This document shows, one piece after another, positions 6,646 to 26,241 of a DNA stretch of 32,000 bases (positions within the stretch are counted from its first letter, which is position 1; each line of letters opens with the position of its first letter). This DNA comes from Phycisphaera mikurensis NBRC 102666 (GTDB lineage Bacteria; Planctomycetota; Phycisphaerae; Phycisphaerales; Phycisphaeraceae): positions 2,940,001-2,972,000 of the forward strand of contig NC_017080.1 in the NCBI RefSeq assembly GCF_000284115.1. Reading direction: 5' to 3'. The notes beneath the pieces were generated by a model. It searched no databases and was not told the origin of the DNA. It worked only from the letters and a program-made list of their open reading frames with translations. Made by a program: the position numbers and the translations under genes.

Positions 6646-6679
6646 TCGCCTTCCGCCCCACCGCCCCGACCACCACGCG

Positions 6680-7582: not shown

Positions 7583-7664
7583 CCCCGGCTCCTTGACGCC
7601 CCCTCCGCTCGGCTCCCGCGGGCGGTGGTTTCCGCCCGAACCCGGCACGCTCCCTGGACCGCTC

Positions 7665-8516
7665 ATGCGCCGCTCCGCCTGCTCTCACCGCGCCTTCACG
7701 CTCATCGAGTTGCTGGTGGTGATCAGCGTCATCGCGCTGCTGATCGGCATCCTCCTGCCGGCGCTGGGAGCGGCCCGCGGCGCAGCACGCGGCGTGCTGT
7801 GCCTCTCCCAGCTCCGGCAGATCCTGACGGCTTCGCACCTGTACGCGGCCGACCACGACGGACGGCTCCCGCCGCACACCTCGCTCGACCCCACCCTCGA
7901 GAACCCCGACGTCCCGGGCGTCGGCAGCAACGTGTACTGGTGCTGGGCCGAGATCTCCGGCGACCCGGCCCTCGCCCTGCGGTCGGGCTCGGTGGGGCGG
8001 TACCTCCAGGAGGCGACGGCCATCGCCGGGTGCCCCGACTTCGAGACCCCCGACGGCGTCCGCGCGTTCTACACGGGCCTCGGCCGCGTCTACCCCATCG
8101 ACGTCCACTACGCGTACAACGGCCGGATGCTCGGGAAGCCGTCGGCGGCGGGCGCCGCCAACTGGATCCCCTACCGCATCGAGGGGATCGGCGACCCCGG
8201 CTCGACCGTCCTCTTCCACGACAGCGGCTCGCCCGGGTCGGGCGGCACCGAGGTCTGGCCGGAGTTCGAGGCCTACCCCGCCGCACCCGACACCCGGGCC
8301 GGGATGGCCGGAGCGGGCCCGGAGGGGCGGCAGACGGTCCACGCCCGGCACGGGGGCGACGACGCGAACGTCGCCTGGGTCGATGGCCACGCCAGCAGCC
8401 AGGAGGTGACGTTCGCGTTCTCCGATGCCGCGGAAACCCGGCTCAAGCTCGGCACGCTCGACCCGGACCCCGCGGACGGTGCGAGCAACCAGTGGTGGAA
8501 CGCGGGGTTCAAGTGA
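7665..8516 (+). CDS. Prepilin-type N-terminal cleavage/methylation domain protein (DUF1559 / H-X9-DG-like family)
   Basis: Within track ORF 7560..8516, ATG at 7665. [53 protein letters not shown] is the classic type II secretion/pseudopilin-like N-terminus common in PVC bacteria. The C-terminal [17 protein letters not shown] resembles the H-X9-DG motif. Confidence 0.85.
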
Positions 8517-11359
8517 CGCGTGCGTGCCGGTCCGCGGCCATCGCCCTCGTGCTCCACCTCGCCGCGGGCGTAGCGTTCGCGGAGCCGGCGTGGGCCGCCG
8601 CTCTTGAAGCCCGCGCCGCCACGCTCGACGCGCCCGGCTTCACCGCCGCGGTCCTCCGCGGCGGCGACCTCGCCACCCACGCGGGGGGCTTCCGCGACGA
8701 GGGCGAGACGGAAGCGATGCGGCCGGGCGATCGCTTCCGCCTCGCCAGCGTCACGAAGCTCTACCTCGCCGCGGCCGTGCTGCAGCTCGTGGACGAGGGG
8801 AAGCTGGACCTCAACGAGACCATCGACCGCTACGTCGGCGGCGTGCCCCACGGCGACGCCATCACCCTGCGGATGCTCGGCCGCCACGAGAGCGGGCTCG
8901 ACGACGCGATCCGCCAGATGCCGTTCCACCGGGCCCTCGCGGCCGAGCCCGGCCGGGCCTGGCCCGCGGGCGAGCTGCTCCGCTACGCGCTTGAGCCCGG
9001 CCCCCGCTCGGCCCCCGGCGAGGCCTGGCACTACAGCAACGCGAACTCGATCCTGCTGGGCCTCGCGGTCGAGCGTGCGACCGGCAGGAGCTGGCAAGAC
9101 CACGTCCGCACGCGGATCCTGGCGCCGCTGGGGCTCACGCGGACCGGCTTCGACGCCGGGCCCGTCGACCCCCGCGGCTACCGCTACGGCAAGCCCGACG
9201 ACCCGGTCGGCTACGGCACGGACTGGTTCGACGCCACCGGCTGGTCCGCCGGCTGGACCGGCGCCGCCGGCTCGATGACCGGCGACGCCGCCGACACGGC
9301 CCGCTTCCTCGCCGCCCTCTTCGGCGGCGACCTGCTCTCCGAGGACGGCCGGGCCGAGCTCATCGACTTCGCGCGCACCGGCGACAGCGGCTTCTTCTAC
9401 GGCTTCCACTGCCACCGCGTGGGCGTTTCCGGCAGCGACGCGGTCGGCTTCGGCCACCACGGCGACGTTCCCGGCTACAGCAGCAGCGCCGTGTGGCTGC
9501 CAGAGAGCCGCACCGCATTCGTCGTGCTCGCCAACCTCTCCGCCGAGCTGGACAAGCAGACCACCGCGACGAAGCTCGGCGAAGCGGCGTTGCCGACGCT
9601 GGCCCGCCCGGGCGGCGCCGCGGACCGCGGCGTTCCCGCCGCGCTGGAAGCCGCGGTCCGCGGCATCGTCGGGGGCTCGGCCGTCCGCCGCGCCGCCGTG
9701 GTCGTGGTGGAGGACGGCCGCGCGAGCGAGCCGCTCGGAGCGGGTTCCGCCGACGGTTCTGGCCGATTCCGGGCCGGCTCCGTCTCCAAGCTGCTCACCG
9801 CCCTGCTCGCCCTCCGCGCGGAAGAGGCCGGCGTGCTCTCGCTGGACACCGCCGTGCTCGACCTGCTGCCGGGCAGCCTCGAGGGGCCCGGCGCCGAGCG
9901 CGTCACCCTCGCCCACCTGCTCGAGCACACCGCCGGCCTGCCCGGCAGCTCCCCCGCCGAGTACGCGGCCGACGCGCCCGGGCTCGACCCGCTCGACTAC
10001 GTCCGGGAGCGGGCTCCCCTCCGGCTTCGCTGGGCGCCCGGCCTGCACCACAGCTACGCCAACGCCGGCGTCACGGTCGCCGCCGCCATGGTCGAGGCCG
10101 CTTGGGGCGCCGGCTTCGACGCGCTCATGCGTCGAGAGGTGCTCGGCCCGCTGGGCATGGCCGACACCGACTTCGCCGGGGCGGGAGCGGTCGACGCGCC
10201 CCCGAGCTTCGCCGCCGACGGGCAGCGGGTGATGCCGCCCTGGCGGATGCCCGTCCGCCCCGCCGGGTCCGTCGTCACCACCGCCGCCGACCTGGGCCGC
10301 CTCCTCGAGGCCCTTCTCGCCGACGACGGCTCCTTCCTCTCGCCCGCCGCGCTCGTCCGGCTGCACGAAGGCCGCACCTCGCCGGTCGCCCGGGCCGGCG
10401 GAGGCGCCGGGGTCTACGGCCTCGGCAACTTCCCGTACATCGCCAACGGCCGGTCGCTCCGCGGCCACTGGGGCCGGACCGAGGGCTACCAGGCCTCCGT
10501 CGCCTACCTGCCCGGTCCGCCCGGGGTCTCCGGCGGTGGCCGCGGCTACGTGCTGCTCGTCGACACCGCCGACCGTGCCGCGGTGTCGCGGCTCCGGTCC
10601 GCGCTGGACGGCCACGCCACCCGCGGCCTGCCCGCCGCCGCGCCCGCCGCTTCCGTGGGCCCCGCCCCCGACGCGGTCGCCGGCCTCTACGAGAACGCCT
10701 CCCACGACAGCGTTCAGCGTGCCTGGCTGTTCGCCCTCCTCGACGCCCGCCGCCTCACCCCCACGCCCGACGGCCTTGCCGTCGCTCCCGCTCTTGGCGG
10801 TCCACCGACCGCCTGGACGCAGACCGCCCCCGGGCTCTACCGCGCCGACGGCCTCGCCGTCGCCAGCGGCGCGACGTTCCAGGCCGGCGGCGACGCCTTC
10901 TGGGCCGACGGCGAGAGCTACCGCCGCGTGTCCGCGTGGTCCTGGTGGGGCCGCTGGACCGCCCTCGCGTCCGGCCTGCTCGCCGCCGCCGCCGCGCCTC
11001 TGCTCTGGCTGCTCGTCGTGCTCGTGCCCCCGCTCCGCTCCGCGTTGCTCCTTCCGGCCACCGCGCTCGGGCTCGCGGGCCTTGCGCTGCTCGTCCTCGT
11101 CGGCGGCTTCGTCGGCTTCCACCTCGGCGGCGACCTGTCGACGATCGCCCGCCTCGGCCGCGTCGGCCCCGCCTCCCTCACCCTCCTCGCCGCCAGCGTC
11201 CTCGCTCCCCTCGCGCTGGCCGCCGGCCTGCTCGGCCTCGCCCCGCGGTATCGGAGCCGGGCCGCCTGGGCCCTCGCCGCGGGCCTCGCGCTGCCGATGG
11301 CCGCCGCGGTCGTTCTGCTCTGGTCCTCCGGGATGATCCCCTGCGTCAGCTGGGCCTGA
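8513..11359 (+). CDS. Tandem double serine-hydrolase (beta-lactamase class C / PBP-like) protein with a C-terminal multi-TM anchor
   Basis: In frame within track ORF 7625..11359. GTG at 8513 overlaps the upstream stop (GTGA). Signal peptide [23 protein letters not shown]. Domain 1 has SVTK, HYSNAN and HHGDVPGY. Domain 2 has SVSK, SYANAG and [13 protein letters not shown]3471-like segment follows ([19 protein letters not shown]), then about 4 hydrophobic helices up to the stop. Confidence 0.85.
9618..9663. repeat. 46-nt hairpin element, copy E (inside the CDS at the junction of the two beta-lactamase domains)
   Basis: CCGCGGACCG cggcgttcccgccgcgctggaagccg CGGTCCGCGG. Exact 10-nt inverted arms and a 26-nt core; the core ends CGGC/GCCG extend the stem to 14 bp. 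Encodes ..[16 protein letters not shown].. Confidence 0.8.
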
Positions 11360-11465: not shown

Positions 11466-12248
11466 ATGTGGAAGCGAACCCGGACGATCGCGTCGGCGCT
11501 GGCGCTGGCGGCCGCAGCCGCGGGTCCCGCGGCGGCGCTGGAGGCGATCGGCTCCCGGCTGGAGGCGCTGCGGGACCCCGGCGTCGCGCACGCGCAGCCC
11601 GCCGGCGTCGACGCCGACGGCGCGCGGGCCTGGGCGCTGGGGCCGGTCGCGGGCTTCCGCGGCGAGGTGACGACCTGGAACGGCGTGCCGCACGTGTGCG
11701 TGCTGGACGCCGAGGGCCGGCCCTTCACCCTGCCGCCGGACGAGGGGGGACGCCGGCCGGTCGGCTTCCTCGTCCGCGCGATGGCGGCTCCGTCCGACTG
11801 GCCGAGCCCGCACCGCGAGGCCGGCCGCACGCGTGACCTCGCCGGCCTCGCCCGGCTGGTGGAGGCCGCCGCGGACGCGTCGGGCGTGGACCTCGACGCC
11901 GAGGGCGTGGCCTTCCGCTTGGAGGGCCGGGCGGAGGAGGTGACGTACCACGTCATCTGGCGGCCGGACGGCGAGCGGCCCCTGGCCGAGGGCGAGCACC
12001 CGGGCGTCCTGCACCGGGAGCGGAAGATCCGCTTCACGCGGAAGGACGTGCCCGTGCGGCTGGTCGGCGTGTACGCGCGCCCGCTGGAGGGCACCCACAC
12101 CCACCCGGGCAACCCGCTGCACGTCCACGCGATCCTGCCCCACGCCGATCACCCCGGCTCCTTCGTGCCGGTGCGAACCGTGGGCGGGCACGTCGAGGCG
12201 ATCCTCCTCGGCGGCATCGACGCCTTCAGCGTCACCACCGGGCGCTGA
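11466..12248 (+). CDS. Secreted hypothetical protein, possibly an alpha-acetolactate decarboxylase-like fold
   Basis: 260-aa track ORF. Signal peptide MWKRTRTIASALALAAAAAGPAAA. Segment order loosely parallels AlsD/BudA proteins (..VRLVGVYARPLEGTHTHPGNPLHVHAI...VGGHVEAI versus the family pattern GTLVGF...GYHLHF...GGHVLD). The similarity is judged by eye and is weak. Confidence 0.55.
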   Translation: MWKRTRTIASALALAAAAAGPAAALEAIGSRLEALRDPGVAHAQPAGVDADGARAWALGPVAGFRGEVTTWNGVPHVCVLDAEGRPFTLPPDEGGRRPVGFLVRAMAAPSDWPSPHREAGRTRDLAGLARLVEAAADASGVDLDAEGVAFRLEGRAEEVTYHVIWRPDGERPLAEGEHPGVLHRERKIRFTRKDVPVRLVGVYARPLEGTHTHPGNPLHVHAILPHADHPGSFVPVRTVGGHVEAILLGGIDAFSVTTGR

Positions 12249-12333
12249 AGCCGGGGCCCGGACGGCGGTGGGAGGGCCCGGAAGCCGCGGCATCCACCGC
12301 CGGCGGGCCTTCCCGGCCTACCGTGCGGGTTGC

Positions 12334-12756
12334 ATGCGTCACGCCCTCCCCTGCGTTCTCGCCCTCGGCCTCGTGGCCCCGCTGGGGGGCTGTGCCGGCT
12401 CCGCGGCAAACACGGTCGAGCCCGGCTTCTCCCGCACGGAGGCCAAGGAGGAGCTGATCGACAAGGCCGTCGTCGATCCGGGCCTCGCCAGCCGCGTGAG
12501 CGTCGAGAGCGTGCAGGTGGCCCGAGACCTGCGGCTGCGGCGGGTGGCGGCGAACCTGCGGAACCGCACGCGCGACGCGAGCTTCTTCCAGTACCGCTAC
12601 CGCTGGTTCGACAAGAACGGCATCCAGATCGACACGCCGCTGGACGCGTGGCAGACCGCCCACGTGCTCGGCGGCGACACCGGCCAGCTCGTCGGGATCG
12701 CGCCCAACGCCGAGGCGGTCGACTGGTCTCTTTCCATCCGCGGAGACGGAAACTGA
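12334..12756 (+). CDS. YcfL-like (DUF1425) lipoprotein
   Basis: Within track ORF 12268..12756, ATG at 12334. MRHALPCVLALGLVAPLGGC has a lipobox (LGGC). RNRTRDASFFQYRYRWFDKNGIQID...WQTAHVLGGDTGQLVGIAPNAEAVDWSLSIR matches the YcfL pattern (a YRF.WyD..G block, then aP...A..frl.iR). Confidence 0.7.
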   Translation: MRHALPCVLALGLVAPLGGCAGSAANTVEPGFSRTEAKEELIDKAVVDPGLASRVSVESVQVARDLRLRRVAANLRNRTRDASFFQYRYRWFDKNGIQIDTPLDAWQTAHVLGGDTGQLVGIAPNAEAVDWSLSIRGDGN

Positions 12757-13430
12757 TGCGACGCTTTCCCCTGCCCTCCCCGCGGACCGTCGGCCTCGGA
12801 CGCGATCCCGCCCCGCGGTCCGCGGCGGTCTGCGCCATCGCCGCCGCCCTCCTCGTCGCGTCCTGCGGGCCGGCGTCGCAGCGGATCGACCCGCGCGGCG
12901 ACCGACAGGTGCAGGGCGAGACGGCGACGTTCGCGCAGTTCAGCGACGCGGCCAGCGAGATGCTCGGCAAGATGCTGCGGTCGGACTTCCTCGACCGCGA
13001 GGCCTACCGGCCGCACCCGGTGCGCATGGTCGTGTCGGACATCGAGAACAAGACCGACACGCTGCCGCCGACGGAGCTGATGCTGTCGCGGATCCGCGAA
13101 GGCCTGCTCAACAGCGGCAAGGTCGTGTACGTGAGCACGCTGGGCAGCGACGGCACCGACCGCTTCACCACCGAGGCGCCCGGGCAGCTGCTCGACGGCC
13201 GCCCGAACTTCCGCGACGACACGCTCCCCGAGGCCGGGCAATTCGAGGCCCCGCGCCTGTCGCTGCGGACGCAGGTGCTCTGGTACGCGCAGGTCGGCAA
13301 CCAGGCGCGGCAGAGCACCTACGTGGTGCGGATGTTCGTCTCGGACGTCCAGCGGGGCGTGACGATCTGGGAGTCCACGAGCGACCCGATCGCGATCCGG
13401 ACCGAGCGTGGCCGCGGCGTGGGGCTGTAG
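12756..13430 (+). CDS. LpoB-like lipoprotein (penicillin-binding protein activator LpoB / COG3417-like)
   Basis: In frame within track ORF 12330..13430. ATG at 12756 overlaps the ycfL-like stop (TGATG). Lipobox LVASCG comes after an unusually long N-region. VRMVVSDIENKTDTLPPTELMLSRIREGLLNSGKVVYV and the C-terminal ..YVVRMFVSDVQRGVTIWES fit the LpoB-type fold pattern. No alternative in-frame start lies between 12756 and the lipobox. Confidence 0.65.
   Translation: MRRFPLPSPRTVGLGRDPAPRSAAVCAIAAALLVASCGPASQRIDPRGDRQVQGETATFAQFSDAASEMLGKMLRSDFLDREAYRPHPVRMVVSDIENKTDTLPPTELMLSRIREGLLNSGKVVYVSTLGSDGTDRFTTEAPGQLLDGRPNFRDDTLPEAGQFEAPRLSLRTQVLWYAQVGNQARQSTYVVRMFVSDVQRGVTIWESTSDPIAIRTERGRGVGL
12780..12825. 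repeat. 46-nt hairpin element, copy D (inside codons 9-24 of the LpoB-like CDS)
   Basis: CCGCGGACCG tcggcctcggacgcgatcccgccccg CGGTCCGCGG. Exact arms and a 26-nt core. The first 16 nt are identical to the left arm of copy B. Confidence 0.8.
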
Positions 13431-14442: not shown

Positions 14443-15102
14443 ATGGCCCCGCGTCGGCCGCGTTGCCCCTCCGACCGCCTCTCCTGCGCCTTGCTCCGCC
14501 CCCCCGCCGACCCCCGACGCGACTGGCCGCTCCTCGTGGAGCGGGCCCGGACGGGCGACGCCGCGGCCTGGTCGGCGATCGTCGACGGGATGGGCCCGCG
14601 GGTCATGGGCCTGATGGTGGCCCGCACCCGCGACCGAGAGCTCGCCGAGGAGCTGACCGCGGCGACCTTCGCGAAGCTCGTGGAGGTGCTGACCGACCCG
14701 ACCGCCAAGGCCACGTACACGGAGAGCGGACGCTTCGAGGCCTGGCTCTTGCGCATCGCCATGAACAAGCTCCGCGACGAGATGCGGAGGCGGAAGAAGG
14801 CGGGGCCGGGTTCCCAAGCGGACGACGAGGGCGGCGACCCGCTCGACCGGTTCGCCGGGGACGCTGCGGAAGCGTGCGAACTCGCCGAAGTCGCGGAGTC
14901 CCTCGCCGGGCTCCGTGCCGCCGTGGCGACGCTGCCCGACGCCGACCGCGAGGTGCTGCACCTCCGCCACACCGCCGGATTGACCTTCCCGGAGATCGCC
15001 GCCCGGCTCGCCCAGCCACTGGGCACGGTGCTGGCCCGGGCCCACCGCGCCCACAAGAAGCTCGCCCGCCTGCTGACCGCTCCGCACCCCCTCGCCCGCT
15101 GA
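14443..15102 (+). CDS. RNA polymerase ECF-type sigma factor
   Basis: C-terminal part of track ORF 13969..15102. Region 2 (LLVERARTGDAAAWSAIVDGMGPRVMGLMVAR...FEAWLLRIAMNKLRDEMRRRKK) and region 4 (ATLPDADREVLHLRHTAGLTFPEIAARLAQPLGTVLARAHRAHKKL). The start is ambiguous: ATG at 14443 or in-frame TTG at 14491. Confidence 0.85.
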   Translation: MAPRRPRCPSDRLSCALLRPPADPRRDWPLLVERARTGDAAAWSAIVDGMGPRVMGLMVARTRDRELAEELTAATFAKLVEVLTDPTAKATYTESGRFEAWLLRIAMNKLRDEMRRRKKAGPGSQADDEGGDPLDRFAGDAAEACELAEVAESLAGLRAAVATLPDADREVLHLRHTAGLTFPEIAARLAQPLGTVLARAHRAHKKLARLLTAPHPLAR

Positions 15103-15110
15103 GGCCCGTC

Positions 15111-15734
15111 ATGCTCCCGCAACGCCTCGATCACGCCGGCCGACCGCCCGACCCCGCCGCCGAGGCCCGCCTCGACGTCGCGCTCGCGCCGGCCCCGCTG
15201 GACCCGGCCTTCCGCCGCCGGCTGCTGGCCCTGCACGCGCCGCTGGCCGCGCAGAGCCCCGGCGCGGCCCCCACCGTCGCCGGCCGCATCGGCCCACGCG
15301 GGCCCCGCTCGGTCGCCGCCGCGCTGGCCGCGACGCTGGCGGCGGCGGCGGTGGCGGCGATCGTCATCGCGCCGTGGGGGGCGCTGCCGGGCGAAGCGCC
15401 GAGCGGGGCGACCGCCCCGGCGGGGACCTCGCCGCTCGCGGCCGCCGACGCCGCGCCCGGGCCCGAGCCCGATGCGCGGGAGCCCGCCTCGCCCGGGCTC
15501 TCCGGGCTGCCCGGGCTGCGGGCGCTGGCCGACGCCGCCGCGGCCAGCGGCCTGCAGCCGGCCCACGGCGGGGACGCCGCAGACCCGGCGGCCACAGCGG
15601 CCCCGGGGACCGCCGAGCACCGGCTGGCGGAGCTCGAAGCGGCCGCCGGCGATCCCTGGGCCCGCTCCGCCTGGGCCGCCGCCGAAGCCGACGCGCTCTT
15701 CGCCGACGGCCCGTCCTCCACGACCCTCTTCTAG
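15111..15734 (+). CDS. Putative anti-sigma factor (single-pass membrane protein)
   Basis: In frame within track ORF 14463..15734. ATG lies 8 nt after the sigma stop. One hydrophobic helix (SVAAALAATLAAAAVAAIVIAPW) separates a short N-terminal part from an Ala/Pro-rich C-terminal part. The call rests on position and topology only. Confidence 0.5.
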   Translation: MLPQRLDHAGRPPDPAAEARLDVALAPAPLDPAFRRRLLALHAPLAAQSPGAAPTVAGRIGPRGPRSVAAALAATLAAAAVAAIVIAPWGALPGEAPSGATAPAGTSPLAAADAAPGPEPDAREPASPGLSGLPGLRALADAAAASGLQPAHGGDAADPAATAAPGTAEHRLAELEAAAGDPWARSAWAAAEADALFADGPSSTTLF

Positions 15735-15759: not shown

Positions 15760-16497
15760 ATGCATGCTCTCTTTCACGCCCGCCCGCTGCCCGCCGCGCT
15801 GCTGGCCGCCGCGCTCGCCGCCGCCCCGCCCGCCCTCGCCCAGCCCGATCCGCCGCCGCCGCCGCGACAGGCGGATCAAGACCGCGGCCACGGGCAGCAC
15901 CACGATCGCGAGGGGCGGCGTGGCGACGCCGGTCACCGCGGGAGGGAGGGGCGCCACGGCGGCGGCGGCGAGGAAGACCACCGCCGCCCCTCGCGCGAGG
16001 AGATGGCCGCCGTGCTCCGCGACATCGACCCCGCGCTCGCCGAGCGGGTGGCCGACCGCGAGGCCCGCGGCGGCCCCGGGGGGTTGGCCGGCCGCCCGGG
16101 CCGGGGCGTCGTCGCCGCCGACGGCATCCGCACGCTGTTCCCGCAGATTGCGCGCCTCACCCGGCTCAAGCAGGTCGACCCCGCGCTCTACGACCTCCGC
16201 GTCCGCGACATCCGCTTCGAGCGCGACACCGAGCGGATCGTCGCCGAGGGCCGGCGGCTCCGCGGCGACCCGACGATCGAGGACGCCGACGACCGGCTGG
16301 AGGACCTCCACGACGAGCTCGAGGAGAAGGTCGAGGCGCACTTCGAACTCCGCCAGGAGATCCGCGCCGCCGAGCTGGAGCGGCTGGAGAAGCGGCTGGA
16401 GCAACTCGAGGAGGACCTCAAGCGGCGGCAGGACGACAAGGACGCGCTGATCGCCCAGCGCCTGGCCAAGCTCCGCGGCGACGACGGCGGCTGGTGA
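15760..16497 (+). CDS. Secreted coiled-coil protein (hypothetical), third gene of the ECF module
   Basis: In frame within track ORF 15472..16497. Signal peptide MHALFHARPLPAALLAAALAAAPPALAQP, a His/Arg/Gly/Asp-rich low-complexity segment, then an E/R/L-rich helical C-terminus (LHDELEEKVEAHFELRQEIRAAELERLEKRLEQLEEDLKRRQDDKDALIAQRLAKL). This is reminiscent of periplasmic Spy/CpxP-type helical proteins, but no motif was confirmed. Confidence 0.55.
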   Translation: MHALFHARPLPAALLAAALAAAPPALAQPDPPPPPRQADQDRGHGQHHDREGRRGDAGHRGREGRHGGGGEEDHRRPSREEMAAVLRDIDPALAERVADREARGGPGGLAGRPGRGVVAADGIRTLFPQIARLTRLKQVDPALYDLRVRDIRFERDTERIVAEGRRLRGDPTIEDADDRLEDLHDELEEKVEAHFELRQEIRAAELERLEKRLEQLEEDLKRRQDDKDALIAQRLAKLRGDDGGW

Positions 16498-16834: not shown

Positions 16835-18295
16835 TTACCGGGCGGGGCGCGGCTCGATGATCTCGAAGGCGCGGAAGTCGGCCTCGAGCCCGACCACGTG
16901 CAGGTGGAAGACGAGGCGGCGGGGGGTGGGGTTGGCGGGGAGGTCCAGCAGCGTCCGGCCGTCGAGGACGACGGTCCGGCGGCCGCCGCGGCGGGAGAGG
17001 TGGAGGTGGTGCTCGGCGGTCCCGTCGAAGAAGGACGCGGCGATCGGCTCGTAGTGGCCCCAGCCGTGCAGCAGGGTCACCTCGCGCTCGCCGTCGCTGA
17101 AGGCCTGGAAGTTCGCGCCCAGCACGGACGTCTCGCCGCCGAAGTAGGCCGGCCCGTCGGGCTCGGGGGTCGTCTCGTAGTCGCTCACGTTGATGAGCAT
17201 CGACGAGGGCCACCGCTCGCTGGGGGGGCCGGTGAGGCGGACGGTGAAGCTGGCGTGGAGGTCGAAGTCGCCGAAGGGCTCGTTGCGGGTGAGGAAGGCC
17301 TGCTTGTAGAAGGCGGGCCGCTGGCTGATGAGCAGCGGGCGGTTCTCCACGATCAGGTCGTCGTGGGTGTGGAAGTCGGCGCCCCAGGGCCACTCCGCCG
17401 CCCCGTGCAGCATCGGGTTCACGACGCGGGCCGGGCCGGCGGGCTCCGCCGCGGCGGGGGGCGCGGCGGCCCCGGGGGGCGAGGCCGGGCCGCCGGACCG
17501 CAGGAACGCGGCCTGGGCCGGCCAGCGGGGGAGGCGGGCGAAGGGGAAGAAGCCCGGCCGCCGCTCCACGAGGTCGACGAGGTCGCCGGTGCGCCCGCTG
17601 GCGAGGAAGAAGCGGTACCGGTCGAGCGGGCCGGGCAGGTGGAGCTGGTTCTGGTGGTCGGTGCGCTCGGGCAGCGTCGCGAGCAGCTCGCCCGCGCGGT
17701 CGAGCTCGCCGAGCCCGGCCGCGACGCGGAAGGCCAGCCCGCGAAAGACCGGGTCGTCCGGGCAGCCCGCGGCCCGCACCGCCTCCAGCCGCCGGGCCGC
17801 CTCGCCGGGGTCGCGCCGCTCCAGGGCCCACGCGGCGTCGAGGAGCGCGCCGTTCCAGGCCTCGTCGCGGGCCATCGCGCGGCTGACGGCCAGCGCCAGG
17901 CGCGCCGGCCGGGTGCGGAGCGAGACCCCGATCAGGCCGTCGCCGAAAGCGTGCTCGCGGGTCCGTCCCTCCGCGTCCGCGAAGGCGATGCGGTCGCCGC
18001 CCTCCCGGCCCCGGAGGGGGGTGAGCTGCGGGTACCGCAGCACCGACTCGCCGTTGATGGCGACGATCACCTCCCCGGCCCGGACCCCCGCGGCCCGGGC
18101 CGCGCCGTCCGGAGCCACGGCCAGGACGTCGACCCCGGCGACGGGGCCCGCGTCGGCGTCGAGCTCCTGGAGCGTTGGCGTCAACGCGGGTTGCCCGTGG
18201 GCAACCCACGCGCACGCGCAGGCCAGCGCGACCCAACAGGACGCAGGGACGACGCCGGGGGCGCTCCGGGGTCGGCGAGCGCGGAAGAGCTTCAT
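16835..18295 (-). CDS. Secreted PDZ-domain protein with a C-terminal ConA/DUF1080-like region
   Basis: 486-aa track ORF. Signal peptide MKLFRARRPRSAPGVVPASCWVALACACAWVAHG. PDZ-like GVDVLAVAPDGAARAAGVRAGEVIVAINGESV. A helical middle region. The C-terminal beta-rich region ending RRLVFHLHVVGLEADFRAFEIIE resembles the DUF1080 tail. Its ATG (18295) overlaps the upstream stop (ATGA). Confidence 0.75.
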   Translation of the reverse strand: MKLFRARRPRSAPGVVPASCWVALACACAWVAHGQPALTPTLQELDADAGPVAGVDVLAVAPDGAARAAGVRAGEVIVAINGESVLRYPQLTPLRGREGGDRIAFADAEGRTREHAFGDGLIGVSLRTRPARLALAVSRAMARDEAWNGALLDAAWALERRDPGEAARRLEAVRAAGCPDDPVFRGLAFRVAAGLGELDRAGELLATLPERTDHQNQLHLPGPLDRYRFFLASGRTGDLVDLVERRPGFFPFARLPRWPAQAAFLRSGGPASPPGAAAPPAAAEPAGPARVVNPMLHGAAEWPWGADFHTHDDLIVENRPLLISQRPAFYKQAFLTRNEPFGDFDLHASFTVRLTGPPSERWPSSMLINVSDYETTPEPDGPAYFGGETSVLGANFQAFSDGEREVTLLHGWGHYEPIAASFFDGTAEHHLHLSRRGGRRTVVLDGRTLLDLPANPTPRRLVFHLHVVGLEADFRAFEIIEPRPAR

Positions 18296-21200
18296 GGGGA
18301 GGTTCCTCGCAGCCGGGCGACGGCGGCCGCGGGGTCCCGCAGCAGGGCGCGGACGGCTTCGCTGCCCGCGAGGACCAGCGCGGACCGCCCGCGGTCGTCG
18401 GTGGCGGCCGGGTCGGTCCCGAGCGCCAGCAGCAGCGCAACCTGCGCTGCGGACGCGTCCTCGTTGCGGCCCGGGCGGGCGCGGGAGGCGGCTTCGGCCA
18501 GCAGGGTGAGGCCCTCGCGGTCGGGCACGTCGACGCTGAAGCCGCGGGCCACCAGGCCGACGGCCAGTCCCCGGAAGCCCCGGTCCAGCGCCAGCGTCGC
18601 GGCGAAGTCGCCCAGGCGCCAGGCGCCCGCGAGCGGGCGGTCCAGCCGGGGATCGCCCGGCGGCGACATCAACCCGAAGAGGTCGAGGCGGCGGTCCCTC
18701 AGCGCCTCCAGCGCCGGCACGCCCCAGCCCCGGAAGGCGTGGTCGGGGTCGTAGCCGCTCGTGGCGAAGGGGTCCGCCCCGGCGTCGAGCACGCGGGCGA
18801 GGATCTCGGGGTCGCCGCGGTCCACCGCGCTCTCCAGCACCCCCGGCCGGGCGGCGTCCGCGCCGGCGTCGAGCAGGCGGTGGACGGTTTGGGCCTCGGC
18901 CAGGGACACCGCCGTCTCCAGCGCCGTGAACCGGCCGGCGTCGCTGAGCCGCGGGTCGGCGCCGCGGTCGAGCAGCAGGTTGGCGATGGCGTCGTCGCGG
19001 CGGCTGAGCGCCAGGGTCAGCGGGAACATCCGGTCGGCTTGGAGGCGGTCGTCCCGCACCGACGCGCCCGCGTCGAGCAGCGCCCGCACGCAGGCGAGGC
19101 GGCCGCGGCGGATGGCCAGGTGCAGCGGGGCGCAGCGGAAGGCGTCGAAGCCGTCCTCTTGGTGGATGGCCGGCGGGGCGATCCGGGCGTACGCGTCGAG
19201 GTCGCAGCCGTTAGCGCCCAGCCAGGCGATGCAGCGGGAGGCGTCCGCCAGCACCGCGGCGTGGCCGAGGGTGCCCACGGCCGCGTGCGTCGCGTCGAGG
19301 CTCGCCCCCGCTTCGTGCAGCAGCTCCAGCAGGTCGGGCCGATCCATCAGCACGGCGAGCAGCGCCGCGTTGTGGCTGAAGCGGCCGTAGGTCGCGGCGT
19401 CGGGATCGGCCCCGGCCGCCAGCAGGCGCGCGACGGTGCCGGCCCGGCCGGAGCGGACGGCGGCGAGCAGCGGGGGCCACGCGTCGGGCTCGGCGAGCGA
19501 GGGCGTCCCGGCGGGCGGGAGCTCCCCGCGGTACGCCGCCCAGGCCTCAAGCGGAACACCGAACGGAAGCGGCTTCGAAGACGCGGTCGCGCCGCCGGGG
19601 TCTTCCACGCCCATGGCCGCCAGCAGCCCGTCGCGGCGGAGCATCACCACGTCCCGCTCGGGGTCGGGCACGAACAGGTGCACCTCGTCGTGGGCGACGA
19701 AGAAGTCCGTGAGCCGCCCGGTCCACTCGGTCTGGCCGAGCACGCCCCCGCTCTCCGCGTCGACCGCCAGCAGCCGCGTGAGGAAGCGCTCGGGCGGGGG
19801 GCCTACGACGCGGGCGTCCCGCGTCGGCGGGTCCGGGTCCTCCCAGGCGTACGCCATCCAGACGAGGCCGCCGTCGCCGCGGATCCGCAGCGTCTCCAGC
19901 GGCGGGGCGTGCAGGGGCAGGTCCCGCAGCACCTCGCCCGCGCCCGAGACCTGCAACAGCCGCGTTTCGAGCACGACCCAGAAGGCGTCGCCCTCGGCCT
20001 GCACGTCGACGACCGCTTGGTCGCCGTGCGGCGTGCGGGACGCGAGCCAGGCGTCGAGCGGCTCGACGCCGTCGGTCCCGACCCACGACCAGGGTGTCTT
20101 TCGCCCCCCGCCGCCGCCCATGGCGGCCCGGCCGCCGGCGGCCTCCAGGCGGGCGCCGGAGAACCGCTCCTCCAGCCGGGCGTCGAGCAGCCGGAGGTTC
20201 TCGAGCCCGCCGTCGGGGTTCTCGACGAGCCCCAGCCGCCCGTCGCCGCTGAGGACCCAGACGCGCGTGCCGTCGAAGGCGACGCGGCGGACGTCCCCGG
20301 AGACGAGCCTGTCCTCGGGCCCGAGCCTCCAGGCCTCCTCCCCCCAGGGCAGCATCAGCTTCAGGCCGTCCCCGGCCGTCGCCAGCCAGAGCCGCCGCTC
20401 GGAGGCGGCGAGGTCGGTCCACTGCGCGTCCCCGACGCGCTCGTGCAGCGGGGCGACGCGGAGGGTGAGCGGGTCGAGCAGGCCCAGCCCCTCGGGCGGG
20501 GCGGGGGAGTCGGGCGACCGGTGGTGCGGGGCCCGGAGGCCCGCGTAGCGGCCGCGCCACGGCACGACGCGGCGGACCTGCGGGGTGTGGCCGCGCCGGT
20601 CGAGGGTCAGCTCGCGGCCGGGCGACACGTCCCAGGTGAGCTCCAGCCGGGACACCTCCGCGACCGCGTCGGCCCCCGCGACCGCCGGCTCCTCCACGTG
20701 CCGCGGGAGCCCCGGCGTCGCCGCGGGGTCGTCGCCGTACCGGGCCCGGCGCAGGCGGTCCCGCTCCTCGAAACGCGCCCGGACGTCCGGCGGGAGACCG
20801 GGAGGCATCGACGGGAACGACGACCGGGCCGGCGGGGAAGACGCCGCGGAGGACGCGGGCGGGTCGGCGACCGGCTCGGGCGAGGCGGCGGGCTCCGGCC
20901 GCAGGGTGCCGTCGGCCACCCGGGCGTCGATCCACGCCCGGAGGTGCTCGGCGGCGGCGGCGGTGAGCCGGGCCGCTTGCGGCTGCGCCTCGCCCGCCGG
21001 CGGGTCCGCCGCGAACATGGCCTCGTGTTCGGCGGACCGGCCCGCGGAGGCGAAGGCCTCGGACAGGCGGTCGAGCAGGTCGGGGTCGAAGGTGAAGCGG
21101 TGGGTGTCCAGCCGCTCCTCCTCCCAGGCGGGCTCGAAGACGGGCCACCACGCGCTCCAGACCGCGGCCGTCTCCGCGTCGCTCAGGCGGAAATCGCGGG

Positions 21201-22929
21201 AGAGGACGTCGCCGGGATCGACGGCCCGGAGTCGCCCCGGGTGCTCCGACGCCGGCGGGCCGCCGGAGAGCAGGCGGCCGAGCCCGATCAGGCCGTCCAG
21301 CGTCTCCTGCCGGTAGGCGTCGCGGGCGGCGGCGGGCATGTCGCGGGGGAGCTCGCTGCGGCCCGGGCCCAGCAGCGTGTGCTGCCGGTACGTCACCCCG
21401 CGGTGGAGCTCCGCCCGCGCCTCCAGCCCCATCAGCTTCTCGCGGAGCGTCCAGGTCAGGCCGAGGACCGCCGCCCCGTGCCGGGCGATCACGCGGTCCA
21501 CCTCGGCCTGCCGCCGCCCCAGCCCGACCCACCGCCGCCCGGGCTGAAGCGGCGGGAGCATCAGCATCGCCGCGTCGGCGAGCTCGGGGTCCTCGGGGTC
21601 GAAGAAGGAGGCGGCCTGCCAGGCGAGACGCACGGAGGGGCCGCTGTTGCTGCTGATCCGGCGGGACCGGCCGCCCGCGGCGGCGCCGGCGCCGGCCTGG
21701 AGGCTCTCCGCGGCCGGGCCGCGGGTCAGCAGCGCGACCACCGCGTCCCGCTGCGCCGGCGACACCTCGTCGGGCACCGGAGCTTTGGCGGCGGCCCAGA
21801 CCTCCTCGGCCAGCTCCGCCACGGCGGCGTCGACCTCGCCGCCGGGCACGGTGCGGGTGAAGGTCTCGGGCGCGTCGACGCCCGACCAGAGGTTCAGCGT
21901 GACGGTCGTCGGCACGAGGGCCGGATCCATCGCGATCGTGCCGCCGCCGGGGTCGGGCGCGGCGTCCGCGGACTCGGCCGCGTAGCCCCAGAGGTAGTGG
22001 TCGGCCGCGCGGACCCACGCCATCGGGTCCCGCTGCGTCAGCCCGTTGAGCGCGAGCGTCTGCTCATCGCCGGCGTCCGCAGCCCGCGTCACCCGCACCA
22101 GCCGGACGCCGGGATCCTCCCGCGCCTCGGCCTCCAGCCGCTCGGGCATCGTCGCTTCGAGGTGGTCCAGCCGGTCCGTCCCCGAGGCGTTGCGGAAGAA
22201 CAGCAGCGAGAGCACCGGCGCCCCGTCGAGCGAGGCGAGGCGCTCGTGCGCCGAGCCGATCAGGCCGCGTGTCGCCTCGAGCAGGCGGTCGAGGTCGGCG
22301 TCGGGCAGGGCCTCGGGCCGCGACAGGTCCGCCGGCCACGGCAGCTCGGTCTCGGCGACCCGGTCGGCGGTCAGGAGGTCGACGACCTCCAGCCGCAGCC
22401 GCTGCGCGTCGAGCCCGGTGTCGACGAAGGTGCCGGTCACGATGAGGTCGCAGCCGAGCCAGGCGCCCAGCTGCACCGAGGACGAGGCGTCGCCGCCTCC
22501 CAGCGTCAACCCCAGCGCCGCCTCCCCGGCCGCGGCGTTGAGCGCCTCCCGGTCGACCCACTCGAAGCGTTCCTCCGCGTCGAGCGCCGCCCGGGCGACG
22601 TCGCTGATCCGGCGGGCGGTCCCGGCCCCGACCCAGGTGTCCCGGTCGACGCGGAAGTCCATCAACGCCACCCGGGGCCGCCGGGGGTGGGGCGCCCGCT
22701 CGGGCCGGGGCACCCGCTCGGCGAGGCGGCGTTCCAGCTTCTCCGCCCGCGTCTCCGCCCGCGTCTCCGCCCGCTCGGGCGGCGCCCACCACTGCGCCAC
22801 CGGCGACACCAGCTCGGCCGCGGCCTGCCGCGCCTGCGGGCTGCGGTGGACCAGCCCGGCGGCGACGAGCAGCATGAGCCCGGCGGCGGCGAGGAGCGCG
22901 AGGTTGCGTCGGGGCGAGCGCTTGGGCAT
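18292..22929 (-). CDS. Giant (1545 aa) membrane-anchored multidomain protein: two TolB-N/CsgG-like modules, a propeller-like region and C-terminal ankyrin repeats
   Basis: Track ORF. N-terminus MPKRSPRRNLALLAAAGLMLLVAAGLV (signal anchor). Module 1 is RVALMDFRVDRD...ISDVARAALDAEERFEWVDREALNAAAGE...LGAWLGCDLIVTGTF. Module 2 is PVLSLLFFRNASGTDRLDHLEATMPERLEAEAREDPGVRLV. There are beta-rich repeats (LWLATAGDGLKL.., VWVLSGDGRLGLV.., FWVVLETRLLQV.., LVWMAYAWE). At least 6 ankyrin-like repeats are present (LLAAGADPD.., LLHEAGASLD.., APLHLAIRRGRLACVRALLDAGASV.., LLLDRGADP.., RLLDAGADA.., VLDAGADP..). Confidence 0.85.
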   Translation of the reverse strand: MPKRSPRRNLALLAAAGLMLLVAAGLVHRSPQARQAAAELVSPVAQWWAPPERAETRAETRAEKLERRLAERVPRPERAPHPRRPRVALMDFRVDRDTWVGAGTARRISDVARAALDAEERFEWVDREALNAAAGEAALGLTLGGGDASSSVQLGAWLGCDLIVTGTFVDTGLDAQRLRLEVVDLLTADRVAETELPWPADLSRPEALPDADLDRLLEATRGLIGSAHERLASLDGAPVLSLLFFRNASGTDRLDHLEATMPERLEAEAREDPGVRLVRVTRAADAGDEQTLALNGLTQRDPMAWVRAADHYLWGYAAESADAAPDPGGGTIAMDPALVPTTVTLNLWSGVDAPETFTRTVPGGEVDAAVAELAEEVWAAAKAPVPDEVSPAQRDAVVALLTRGPAAESLQAGAGAAAGGRSRRISSNSGPSVRLAWQAASFFDPEDPELADAAMLMLPPLQPGRRWVGLGRRQAEVDRVIARHGAAVLGLTWTLREKLMGLEARAELHRGVTYRQHTLLGPGRSELPRDMPAAARDAYRQETLDGLIGLGRLLSGGPPASEHPGRLRAVDPGDVLSRDFRLSDAETAAVWSAWWPVFEPAWEEERLDTHRFTFDPDLLDRLSEAFASAGRSAEHEAMFAADPPAGEAQPQAARLTAAAAEHLRAWIDARVADGTLRPEPAASPEPVADPPASSAASSPPARSSFPSMPPGLPPDVRARFEERDRLRRARYGDDPAATPGLPRHVEEPAVAGADAVAEVSRLELTWDVSPGRELTLDRRGHTPQVRRVVPWRGRYAGLRAPHHRSPDSPAPPEGLGLLDPLTLRVAPLHERVGDAQWTDLAASERRLWLATAGDGLKLMLPWGEEAWRLGPEDRLVSGDVRRVAFDGTRVWVLSGDGRLGLVENPDGGLENLRLLDARLEERFSGARLEAAGGRAAMGGGGGRKTPWSWVGTDGVEPLDAWLASRTPHGDQAVVDVQAEGDAFWVVLETRLLQVSGAGEVLRDLPLHAPPLETLRIRGDGGLVWMAYAWEDPDPPTRDARVVGPPPERFLTRLLAVDAESGGVLGQTEWTGRLTDFFVAHDEVHLFVPDPERDVVMLRRDGLLAAMGVEDPGGATASSKPLPFGVPLEAWAAYRGELPPAGTPSLAEPDAWPPLLAAVRSGRAGTVARLLAAGADPDAATYGRFSHNAALLAVLMDRPDLLELLHEAGASLDATHAAVGTLGHAAVLADASRCIAWLGANGCDLDAYARIAPPAIHQEDGFDAFRCAPLHLAIRRGRLACVRALLDAGASVRDDRLQADRMFPLTLALSRRDDAIANLLLDRGADPRLSDAGRFTALETAVSLAEAQTVHRLLDAGADAARPGVLESAVDRGDPEILARVLDAGADPFATSGYDPDHAFRGWGVPALEALRDRRLDLFGLMSPPGDPRLDRPLAGAWRLGDFAATLALDRGFRGLAVGLVARGFSVDVPDREGLTLLAEAASRARPGRNEDASAAQVALLLALGTDPAATDDRGRSALVLAGSEAVRALLRDPAAAVARLRGTSP
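22741..22776. repeat. In-frame 12-nt tandem repeat (about 3 units) encoding (AETR)n in the giant protein
   Basis: ctccgcccgcgt occurs twice, then ctccgcccgctc. On the coding strand this gives ..ERAETRAETRAEKLE.. just after the membrane anchor. Confidence 0.7.
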
Positions 22930-22986
22930 GAAACAGAAAGGTCTCGGTTACTCCCGGCGGCGGCCACGAGGGCCGGCGGCCCGGCG

Positions 22987-23018
22987 GACCGCGTGACCGC
23001 GTGACCGCGTGACCGCGC
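22987..23018. repeat. Octanucleotide microsatellite (GACCGCGT)x3 plus GACCGCGC
   Basis: gaccgcgt gaccgcgt gaccgcgt gaccgcgc, read directly. It lies in the 97-nt spacer between the CsgG-like gene stop (23029-23031) and the giant gene ATG (22929). Confidence 0.9.
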
Positions 23019-23028
23019 GCGGCCCGCA

Positions 23029-24093
23029 TCAGTCGGCGGGCGGCTCCTCGATCAGCCGCCGCAGCAAGCCCTCCACCAGCCGCCGCCCGGCCTTCTGCAA
23101 CGCCGACTTGCCCGCCACCTGCTCGGCCAGGTCCACGCCGCGCGTGGTCACGCGGTCGGCGAGGACGATCCGGCCATCCTCCCGGCGGACGACGTTGATC
23201 TCCGCCCGCGCGTTCGCGAAGCGCAGCCGGCCCATCGCGCCCGCACCCTCGCTGAAGCCCTCGCCGACCACCACCCAGTCGACGCCCTCGAGGCTGCGCG
23301 GCCACGACGGTTCGTCGCCGCGGTCGTACGCCCGGACCCAGTCCGCCAACGCGTTGTCCTTCAGGTCGCGGACATCCACCCCCGCGTCGATCAGCACCTT
23401 CTTGATCTCCGTCTCGACCGCCGGGTCGGGCACCGCCGGGGCGGGGGCCGGTCCCCGGACGTGCTCCTCGGGGATCACCACCGCCATCACCGGCGTGCCG
23501 CCGCGCTCGCGCAGCGTCGCCACCAGCCCCGGCACCGGGTCCCGGGGGACCTCGCCCGCCACCAACTCCCGCCCGTGCTCCCCCAGCAGCGCCACCATCC
23601 GCTCCGCCGCCTCGAAAACCATCTCGTCGAGCGGCGTGTCGAGGCTCTCGCGGACCATGACCGAGCGCGTCCGCGTCGTCTCGGTGCCGATCACCTTCGC
23701 CGTCACCACCCGGCTCTCGCCCAGCTCGAAGGCCCGGCCGGTCACCAGCAGCCTCGCCCCGACCACCCGGCCGATGGCGACGGCTTGGGCGGTGTCGGTC
23801 ACGCCGCTGCGGCTCACCGCCTGCTCGGCGACGGTGCGGTCCAGCCGAGTCCGGTCCACCAGGCTCAGCCCGTCCTCGCCCGAGAGCATCGCCTCCAGCA
23901 CGTCGTTCATGAGCTCGCTGAGCCCCGCCCCGCCCGCGGGCTCGGCGCCCCCCACCGCCTCGAACCCCAGCACCGCCACGGTCAAAGGAGCGCCGGCGGC
24001 ATCGGCGGCATCGGCGGCCGACGACGCCACCGCCGGCCCGGCGAGCGAGCAGACGCACACCAGGGCGATCCGAGGGATCATCGTGTCGAACAT
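23029..24093 (-). CDS. Secreted CsgG/LpoB/TolB-N-like two-module protein (hypothetical)
   Basis: In frame within track ORF 23029..25236. ATG at 24093 (alternative at 24081), with GGGAG 9 nt upstream. Signal peptide MFDTMIPRIALVCVCSLAGPAVASS. LTVAVLGFEAVGG...LSELMNDVLEAMLSGEDGLSLVDRTRLDRTVAEQAVSRSGVTD..AVAIGRVVGARLLVTGRAF is the characteristic CsgG/LpoB-type module. A second alpha/beta module follows. Confidence 0.75.
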   Translation of the reverse strand: MFDTMIPRIALVCVCSLAGPAVASSAADAADAAGAPLTVAVLGFEAVGGAEPAGGAGLSELMNDVLEAMLSGEDGLSLVDRTRLDRTVAEQAVSRSGVTDTAQAVAIGRVVGARLLVTGRAFELGESRVVTAKVIGTETTRTRSVMVRESLDTPLDEMVFEAAERMVALLGEHGRELVAGEVPRDPVPGLVATLRERGGTPVMAVVIPEEHVRGPAPAPAVPDPAVETEIKKVLIDAGVDVRDLKDNALADWVRAYDRGDEPSWPRSLEGVDWVVVGEGFSEGAGAMGRLRFANARAEINVVRREDGRIVLADRVTTRGVDLAEQVAGKSALQKAGRRLVEGLLRRLIEEPPAD

Positions 24094-24352
24094 GGGCTGG
24101 CTCCCGACGGGCGGAGGGGCTTGCAGAAATCTGAACCGCGAGCCTAACCGACCCGACGGCAAGTCGGCGGCCGCCGCTCCGCGCTGAACCCCGAGGTCCA
24201 GGGCGGCTCGTCCGTCGCCTCCCCGAGACGCCCGCCGCCACGCCCGCTCCGGCGAAGATCGAGGACCGGTGGACGAATCGCGGAAGGAGCACCCCGAAGG
24301 AACCCGCTCCGCTCTTCCACGCAAGCACCGTTGCCGGAACCGACCGAAAGAT

Positions 24353-24398
24353 CCGCGGACCGTCGGCCGTTCCCGCCTCCCGGGCCGACGGTCCGCGG
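24353..24398 (-). terminator. 46-nt hairpin element, copy B; probable pgl terminator
   Basis: CCGCGGACCGTCGGCC gttcccgcctcccg GGCCGACGGTCCGCGG is a perfect 16-bp stem with a 14-nt loop. It lies 37 nt downstream of the pgl stop on the minus strand and is followed there by ATCTTTCGG (a short T-run). The outer 10 nt of each arm are the family arms. Confidence 0.55.
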
Positions 24399-25566: not shown

Positions 25567-26241
25567 ATGCCCGAGCCGTCCGCGCCCGCGTCCGCACCGC
25601 CCGCCGCCGCCCTCGCCGCCGCCGCCGTGGCCACGTGCTGGGCGGCGGGCCAGCCCGCCGAGGCACAGCTCAGCACCGGCCAATCGGCCACGGTGACGCT
25701 CGACGTCGCCACACCCGTGAGCGACGTCTACCTCCTGTACGGCGACGCCAGCTCCGGTGTCCTCGACTACAGCGACGCCATCGCCCTGCCCGACGCCCCC
25801 GCCGGCCAGCTGGCGACGCAGGTGCAGCTGGTCGACGACTTCCTCAGCACGGAGTTCCAGTTCGCGGTGATCGGGGTCTACAGCGACCCCACGGCCGTCG
25901 AGCCCGAGGAGCGGTCGGGCATCAGCGTGACCTACAGCGACCGGGGCCCGCTGATCCTGGGCCTCGCGTTCGATGAGGTCTTCAGCGAGAGCGAGACCGA
26001 CCTGCTCAACGCCCTCGTGGCCGACGACACGGTCACGCTCCGCTCCTTCTTCGAGAACAACTTCGGCTCCTTCGGCTTCGGCGAGTTCGGCTTCGTGGGC
26101 GCCTCGCTGACCGGAACCGAGCTGCAGGTGAACTTCTCGCGGGCCGACGAAGCGGGCCTCGCGACCTTGACCATCCCCGAGCCCGCGTCGCTGGCGCTGC
26201 TGGGCTGCGGGGCGGCGCTGATGATGCGGCGTCGATGCTGA
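25567..26241 (+). CDS. PEP-CTERM sorting-domain secreted protein (hypothetical)
   Basis: In frame within track ORF 25285..26241. ATG at 25567 with a good SD. Signal peptide ..AAALAAAAVATCWAAGQPAEA. C-terminus IPEPASLALLGCGAALMMRRRC. Confidence 0.8.
   Translation: MPEPSAPASAPPAAALAAAAVATCWAAGQPAEAQLSTGQSATVTLDVATPVSDVYLLYGDASSGVLDYSDAIALPDAPAGQLATQVQLVDDFLSTEFQFAVIGVYSDPTAVEPEERSGISVTYSDRGPLILGLAFDEVFSESETDLLNALVADDTVTLRSFFENNFGSFGFGEFGFVGASLTGTELQVNFSRADEAGLATLTIPEPASLALLGCGAALMMRRRC

Follow-up and report, generated by a model that had tools for sequence, protein, structure and literature searches.

In a 32,000-nucleotide (nt) stretch of contig NC_017080.1 of Phycisphaera mikurensis NBRC 102666 (hereafter, the window, to whose positions all P. 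mikurensis coordinates refer), three consecutive genes on the minus strand, here called A, B, and C, encode a secreted protein of two alpha/beta domains, a 1545-amino-acid (aa) giant in which a related module occurs twice and which ends in ankyrin repeats, and a secreted protein with a PDZ domain. Judging from sequence comparison, the cluster belongs to an undescribed but widespread cassette of the Planctomycetes–Verrucomicrobia–Chlamydiae (PVC) bacteria that is built from known folds, and its function is predicted below. Because the high G+C content of the window (~75%) yields many spurious open reading frames (ORFs), genes were called from the GC content of the codon positions, which singled out exactly the three minus-strand frames claimed in an initial annotation of the stretch (GC at third positions [GC3], 0.96–0.99; second-position GC, ~0.5). 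The ATGA overlap between the giant and the PDZ-protein gene was likewise borne out and, together with the 99-nt spacer between A and B, upholds the reading of the genes as an operon. The B sequence was 100% identical to that of a P. mikurensis protein named "ankyrin repeat domain-containing protein". A GC-rich hairpin upstream of A (91-nt stretch, −54 kcal/mol), which has no T-run after the stem, may be a terminator or attenuator; its position is compatible with an operon starting at A, at a z-score of only −2.2. A scan for sigma-70 promoters and terminators gave nothing above background, and no promoter was called.

Table 1. Genes, protein regions, and other sequence features of the window. 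Bit scores refer to Pfam families; AF2, AlphaFold2; pLDDT, predicted local distance difference test.
Feature	Window position (nt)	Residues (aa)	Strand	Remarks
Gene A	23029–24093		−	354 aa, secreted two-domain protein; GC3 0.96
A signal peptide		~1–23	−	Predicted signal peptidase I site AVA/SS
A N-domain		35–178	−	CsgG/TolB-N-like alpha/beta
A C-domain		198–350	−	LpoB-like alpha/beta
Tandem octamer	22993–23016		−	(GCGGTCAC)x3, perfect, plus partial fourth copy; inside the A–B spacer
Gene B	18292–22929		−	1545-aa giant; GC3 0.97
B signal anchor	22840–22908	8–30	−	K/R-rich N-terminus; sole hydrophobic segment (Kyte–Doolittle)
B module 1	22228–22680	84–234	−	Homologous to A N-domain
B module 2	21775–22224	236–385	−	Second copy, same fold
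B helical domain	21010–21759	391–640	−	All-helical (AF2); invariant LP.DMP and WWP..EP.W motifs; last part of the autonomous N-terminal unit
B linker	20440–21009	641–830	−	Ala/Pro/Arg-rich; largely disordered by prediction, pLDDT <50 over most
B propeller-like region	19636–20421	837–1098	−	Beta-rich, about six four-stranded blades (AF2)
B ankyrin repeats	18340–19476	1152–1530	−	10–11 repeats (by eye and phmmer)
ATGA overlap	18292–18295		−	4 nt, B TGA stop/C ATG start; same in relatives L001 (7975–7978) and L003 (6133–6136)
Gene C	16835–18295		−	486 aa, secreted; GC3 0.99
C signal segment		13–33	−	Hydrophobic; only such segment (Kyte–Doolittle), N-terminal
C PDZ domain		~50–125	−	PDZ_6, 33.1 bits (cut-off 27)
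C helical region		~130–250	−	TPR-like; TPR_19, 22 bits, weak
C C-terminal domain		~290–486	−	Presumed beta-rich; weakly DUF1080-like
Hairpin	~24350–24398		−	GC-rich, ~16-bp stem; between 6-phosphogluconolactonase gene (upstream) and A
PEP-CTERM proteins	5890–6645, 6623–7582, 25567–26241		+	Three small proteins, near threshold (18.5–20.5 bits vs 20.7)
DUF1559 protein	7560–8516		+	DUF1559/N-terminal methylation
948-aa protein	8513–11359		+	Two Beta-lactamase (PF00144) stretches; duplicated serine hydrolase, penicillin-binding-protein-like
260-aa protein	11466–12248		+	No Pfam match; upstream of the DUF1425/LpoB pair
DUF1425/LpoB pair	12268–13430		+	DUF1425 (YcfL-like, 84 bits), then LpoB-family protein (12756–13430, 41 bits)
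ECF sigma factor	14443–15102		+	Sigma70_r2/r4/ECF; convergent with gene C; not orthologous to the A-linked ECF sigma factors of relatives
Anti-sigma-like protein	15108–15734		+	Single transmembrane segment
Coiled-coil protein	15760–16497		+	Signal peptide

Domain composition of proteins A, B, and C

Protein A contained a single hydrophobic segment, which was N-terminal (Kyte–Doolittle scan), and its AF2 model, built from an 80-sequence alignment (pLDDT 85.8), comprised two alpha/beta domains (residues 37–177 and 202–349). In a Foldseek search of the PDB, CsgG ranked first (E = 1e-7) but superposed with a root-mean-square deviation (rmsd) of ~10 Å, whereas LpoB (4q6l) superposed at 4.0 Å with a TM-score of 0.67 on the target, and the TolB N-domain at 3.3–3.4 Å over ~140 columns. 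Further matches were LptE, GNA1162, HpaA, FlgT (3w1e), and the LPHT ring (8z5n), and the Foldseek probability was 1.00 for CsgG, LpoB, TolB, LptE, GNA1162, and FlgT, which places A in this fold superfamily. In terms of Pfam families, the match to CsgG (PF03783) reached 20.3 bits against a cut-off of 20.8 and covered only profile positions 12–99 of 210, leaving the second half of the profile unmatched, and the match to LpoB (PF13036) reached 13.8 bits against a cut-off of 22.3; relatives of the C-domain also gave weak LpoB matches. Searching the PDB with a sequence profile of the A family returned no meaningful match. The N-domain spans ~140 aa, with compact strands of 9–10 residues in the model and no room for two transmembrane hairpins, and the AVA/SS motif, of the signal peptidase I type, stands where a lipoprotein would have its lipobox cysteine. 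Of the 80 homologues whose N-termini were inspected by eye, most appear to have a signal peptide of this type as well.

The description of A in the initial annotation as a CsgG/LpoB-like secreted protein therefore holds only for the small alpha/beta core. The protein has no lipobox and no counterpart of the half of CsgG that forms the barrel, and the label "CsgG/HfaB family" is misleading for this protein. A thus resembles a secreted, soluble protein with two CsgG/TolB-N/LpoB-fold domains in tandem, without the CsgG lipid anchor or barrel-forming half. Deinococcota encode the counterparts of the two A domains in separate, adjacent genes, the LpoB-like C-domain first and the CsgG-like domain second (E = 2e-13; 9905–10699 and 10708–11334 in locus L029, 4668–5489 and 5493–6536 in L030). 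This arrangement points to an older pair of genes whose fusion gave rise to A.

The two modules that follow the signal anchor of B are related to each other and to the N-domain of A. In hhalign comparisons, module 1 matched the A N-domain with a probability of 99.2% (E = 3e-19), module 2 matched it with 91.7% (E = 8e-7), and the two modules matched each other with 76% (E = 2e-5). BLAST cross-matches also linked the A N-domain with the B modules, and the predicted order of strands and helices was identical in all three. The claim that the giant carries the same module twice was thus upheld, as was that of a signal anchor. In the AF2 model of B residues 1–1130, most 10-residue blocks within residues 86–233 and 239–381 scored ~60–88. 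The propeller-like region drew BamB/WD40 matches (Foldseek, E ~1e-6) in what is a low-confidence model, and the Reg_prop model matched in one B relative, so that this part of the initial annotation is supported only moderately. Pfam detected ankyrin alone in B (Ank_2, 65.3 bits; Ank, 38.7; Ank_4, 35.9; all above threshold), and the number of repeats parsed exceeds the minimum of six first proposed. Neither protein A nor protein B gave a PD40 propeller match (Pfam), and no sensor domain of a known type was recognized in either.

For protein C, the PDZ assignment stands at 33.1 bits, and its sequence matches in the PDB were to the PDZ domains of HtrA/DegP only, while family scans detected no protease domain (trypsin-like or S41). 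The lectin/DUF1080-like assignment of its C-terminal part fared less well, being a weak match to DUF1080 (PF06439) of 14–14.5 bits against a cut-off of 26.8, over profile positions 41–182 of 187. One C orthologue gave weak matches to Laminin_G, of the same lectin-like clan, in place of DUF1080. A conserved C-terminal tail on B or A was considered as the ligand of the PDZ domain and rejected, because these tails are neither conserved nor hydrophobic.

Distribution and gene neighborhoods of the A and B families

A word-index search identified 113 homologues of A, mostly from Planctomycetota and from Phycisphaerae metagenome-assembled genomes, which were often annotated as "CsgG/HfaB family" or "TolB-like". 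For B, the same type of search gave only three relatives, two of them full length with ~50% identity and the third (P0004) a stand-alone protein of 655 aa corresponding to the N-terminal 640 residues of B; the existence of this protein establishes the N-terminal half of B as an autonomous unit. A further full-length orthologue of B had 28% identity. A profile-based word-index search returned only four already-known proteins, and the other relatives of B were obtained from an exhaustive hidden Markov model (HMM) search of 1.84 billion representatives, in which the double module matched 385 representative clusters at E ≤ 1e-3 and 246 at E ≤ 1e-10. The part common to these proteins corresponds to B residues ~83–450 and is located mostly at the N-terminus of proteins of 800–2100 aa, many of which have, by eye, an apparent signal peptide directly before the module. 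Among the 34 top relatives (≥700 aa), 22 carried ankyrin repeats, so that the fusion of the module with predicted extracytoplasmic ankyrin repeats is recurrent, and nine had a CsgG Pfam match in the module. The domain combination is a recurrent, uncharacterized, PVC-wide architecture and is not peculiar to P. mikurensis. Orthologues of C were found in L001 (53%) and L004 (41%), with a C-like protein in L005. Metagenome scans for B and for C yielded nothing useful.

A genome scan for A-type loci, based on an alignment of 18 closer A sequences, placed A beside a module-bearing neighbor in ~19 of the 21 distinct loci whose flanks could be used, and in ten genomes, including Chthoniobacterales and Verrucomicrobiales, the full double module was recognized at E < 1e-60. 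An A-type gene adjoined a double-module gene in the window, in L003, L005, L008, L010, L012, L014, L020, and L021, and in others, and A–B adjacency was seen in Phycisphaeraceae, other Planctomycetota, and Verrucomicrobiota. The order of the genes was variable. L003 has A–B followed by the start of C, and L010 has B–A. L005/L015, L012, and L014 have A–B, with a full-length B of 28% identity, followed by more module-bearing giants; the ORFs of the A–B pair overlap in L005, L012, and L014, and L005/L015 also have a convergent C-like gene. In L008, A is followed by an ankyrin protein and then a 1746-aa module-bearing giant, and in L020 and L021, both from Verrucomicrobiota, by a giant with the full double module (E = 2e-70 and 7e-68, respectively). 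In L004, L002, and L011, B is split, with its N-terminal half as a stand-alone gene, then two genes, then A–C; in L004, this half lies 2.6 kb upstream of A–C. L001 has B–C with the same 4-nt overlap. The neighborhood was kept throughout these rearrangements, and synteny, on which the initial annotation had staked its grouping of the three genes, was recovered in relatives, where the A–B, B–C, and A–C adjacencies all recur.

In 13 genomes, an extracytoplasmic function (ECF) sigma factor gene was located upstream of A on the same strand or was divergent from it; in most of these, a zf-HC2-type anti-sigma factor accompanied it, and sometimes a further protein, X. The protein encoded between the anti-sigma factor and A was not uniform: in L006 (8791–9981) it bears a copy of the A C-domain (E = 5e-34), and in L008 (6970–7998) and L009 (6303–7949) it is an unrelated protein with no significant Pfam match.

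In relatives resembling Phycisphaera, a DsbD thiol-disulfide transporter gene was located immediately beside B or the stand-alone N-terminal half of B, as in L001 (192–3136), L002 (12529–14610), and L004 (7974–9152), and L001 additionally had an AhpC/TSA protein gene beside B. No DsbD family match was found among the window genes scanned.

Predicted role of the cassette in the cell envelope

In the literature searched, no description of the cassette or of its function was found, in agreement with the initial annotation, which had not recognized a described system; its components nevertheless invite comparison with several known ones. The small alpha/beta core common to the A N-domain and the B modules is that of CsgG (PF03783) and HfaB, and all are extracytoplasmic envelope proteins. 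However, each A or B module has ~140 aa, compared with 262 aa in mature CsgG, and A adds an LpoB-like domain and lacks both a lipobox and the hairpins that form the 36-stranded barrel of CsgG. Pfam scans of the window neighbors revealed no csgE, csgF, csgA, or csgB and no hfaA or hfaD partners. The N-terminal alpha/beta domain of TolB gave the best superposition with A, and TolB also pairs this fold with a periplasmic beta-propeller, whereas B has two membrane-anchored copies of the module, and a helical domain and a long linker intervene before its propeller-like region, which the ankyrin repeats follow; Pfam scans found no tolQRA or pal genes in the window. LpoB, the activator of PBP1B, has a globular domain whose fold matches A, but it is a single-domain outer-membrane lipoprotein with a long disordered stalk, whereas A has two domains, is apparently soluble, and shows no long stalk in its model.

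In FlgT, FlgO, and FlgP of the Vibrio flagellar H-ring, and in PelC of the Pel system, tandem or oligomerized TolB-N/CsgG-like modules form periplasmic rings or platforms, and the partners of such rings are large and repeat-rich, as illustrated by the tetratricopeptide (TPR) repeats of PelB. In contrast to these systems, no flagellar or pel genes were located near A and B, the partner B bears ankyrin repeats and no porin domain, and the link of the A–giant cassette to ECF sigma factors is not a known feature of either. AnkB of Pseudomonas aeruginosa, a small periplasmic protein linked to the catalase KatB, likewise has ankyrin repeats outside the cytoplasm, but those of B end a 1545-aa giant with CsgG/TolB-fold modules. 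A defense system was also considered and rejected, as the PADLOC library gave ankyrin-driven matches only.

We favor, with a probability of roughly 0.45, the reading that the three proteins act together outside the cytoplasm in a single envelope scaffold, with A paired to the paralogous modules of B. A physical partnership of A and B outside the cytoplasm is suggested by the homology of their modules, the secretion-type N-termini of all three proteins, the stop/start overlaps, and an adjacency found in two phyla despite rearrangements. In such a scaffold, the single signal anchor of B would fix the giant in the cytoplasmic membrane, with the remainder, including the ankyrin repeats, in the periplasm, and A would dock on the two membrane-proximal modules of B through module–module oligomerization of paralogues. 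The same fold oligomerizes in this way in the rings of CsgG, PelC, and FlgT. The flexible linker of ~190 residues would allow the propeller-like domain and the 10–11 ankyrin repeats to reach other envelope proteins, and C would serve as a lineage-specific adaptor, its PDZ domain binding a peptide and its C-terminal domain perhaps a glycan. The cassette probably acts either downstream of a response to envelope signals, as its output, or as one of its inputs, because in most other PVC bacteria it follows an ECF sigma/anti-sigma pair; in P. mikurensis, this linkage would have been lost or relocated.

Several points weigh against the scaffold. C is confined to Phycisphaeraceae, neither A nor B ends in a conserved hydrophobic stretch to which a PDZ domain could bind, and L001 has no A upstream of its B–C pair. 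The ECF pair is not adjacent in the window or in its closest relatives (L001, L003, and L004). The AF2 model of B residues 1–1130, based on a four-sequence alignment, has low confidence (pLDDT 55.8). Moreover, the binding of A to B, the oligomeric state, the clients, and the role of C are features that we infer, and "scaffold" denotes a function of low specificity. Of the two roles offered in the initial annotation, a periplasmic scaffold or a secretion-associated complex, the scaffold is nonetheless favored, and secretion is the weaker option because A lacks a lipobox and the barrel-forming half of CsgG. Secretion of the curli or holdfast type, with A as a CsgG/HfaB-like outer-membrane channel exporting B or another substrate, would fit the NCBI name of A ("CsgG/HfaB family protein"), the first rank of CsgG in Foldseek (E = 1e-7), and the passing of the Pfam CsgG model by most A homologues in precomputed annotation. 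Yet the Pfam match of A itself is partial (positions 12–99 of 210) and below the cut-off, its N-domain of ~140 aa is too small for two transmembrane hairpins, and CsgG superposes on it far less closely (~10 Å) than do TolB-N and LpoB (3.3–4.0 Å). Furthermore, A and, by eye, most sampled homologues have an AXA-type cleavage motif and no lipobox, and no csgE/F/A/B-like or hfaA/D-like genes are neighbors. With three defining features failing, a curli-type channel is contradicted, and we consider secretion of this kind very unlikely.

The arrangement sigma–(anti-sigma)–(X)–A–giant on one strand, or as a divergent pair, in 13 genomes, together with the Reg_prop (two-component regulator propeller) match in one relative, could instead indicate signaling, with the A/giant cassette acting as a periplasmic sensor or accessory regulator of the ECF sigma/anti-sigma pair, and with the propeller and repeats binding a ligand or envelope-damage signal and controlling the anti-sigma factor. 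This is possible but doubtful, given that no cognate ECF pair adjoins the genes in P. mikurensis, L001, L003, or L004, that A and B yielded no match to a known sensor domain, and that ECF operons commonly include their target genes, so that the adjacency suits an output role equally well. A role resembling that of LpoB or TolB, in which A and the B modules would regulate peptidoglycan synthases or tether envelope layers, agrees with the best rigid superpositions of A (LpoB, TM-score of 0.67 on the target and 4.0 Å; TolB N-domain, 3.3–3.4 Å), with the weak LpoB Pfam matches among relatives of its C-domain, and with the TolB-like joining of the fold to a propeller-like region in B. However, we judge it unlikely, since A has neither a lipoprotein anchor nor the long linker of LpoB and scores 13.8 bits against 22.3 for the LpoB family, no PD40 match was found, no tolQRA/pal or penicillin-binding protein gene lies within the operon, and a better LpoB-like gene is already present at 12756–13430. 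That three unrelated secreted proteins were juxtaposed by chance might be argued from the restriction of C to Phycisphaeraceae and from the absence of A beside B in L001, but this is scarcely credible when A adjoins a giant in two phyla even where genes have been rearranged, a homologous module links A with B, and stop/start codons overlap. What probability remains is assigned to roles outside these readings.

Extending the envelope scaffold beyond this locus, we tentatively consider it possible that A-type proteins and double-module giants form the core of an undescribed PVC periplasmic machine, usually under ECF sigma control, in which paralogous CsgG/TolB-fold modules build a membrane-proximal platform displaying arrays of ankyrin (or TPR) repeats. 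If so, this would be the first defined cellular context for extracytoplasmic ankyrin repeats in bacteria and possibly a component of the unusual planctomycete and verrucomicrobial envelope. The envelopes of Planctomycetota and Verrucomicrobiota are atypical, and their protein organization is largely unknown. The present analysis defines for them a gene pair conserved in both phyla, a double module of ~360 residues that hundreds of giant secreted proteins contain, the repeated joining of this module to ankyrin repeats predicted to be extracytoplasmic, and a frequent linkage to ECF sigma/anti-sigma genes. A platform formed by A and B would be an envelope assembly that we have not found described, made from the fold of curli, Tol–Pal, LpoB, and flagellar H-ring components, and both A–B binding and ECF dependence offer a testable handle on the giant proteins of PVC bacteria. 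If the cassette proves to be merely a generic adaptor, the practical value would lie in better annotation.

Other genes of the window

The remaining window genes listed in Table 1 are on the plus strand. The DUF1425/LpoB pair, with its bona fide LpoB-family member, gives the window another set of LpoB-fold proteins, independent of the first. The DUF1559/N-terminal-methylation protein is of a type typical of Planctomycetota.

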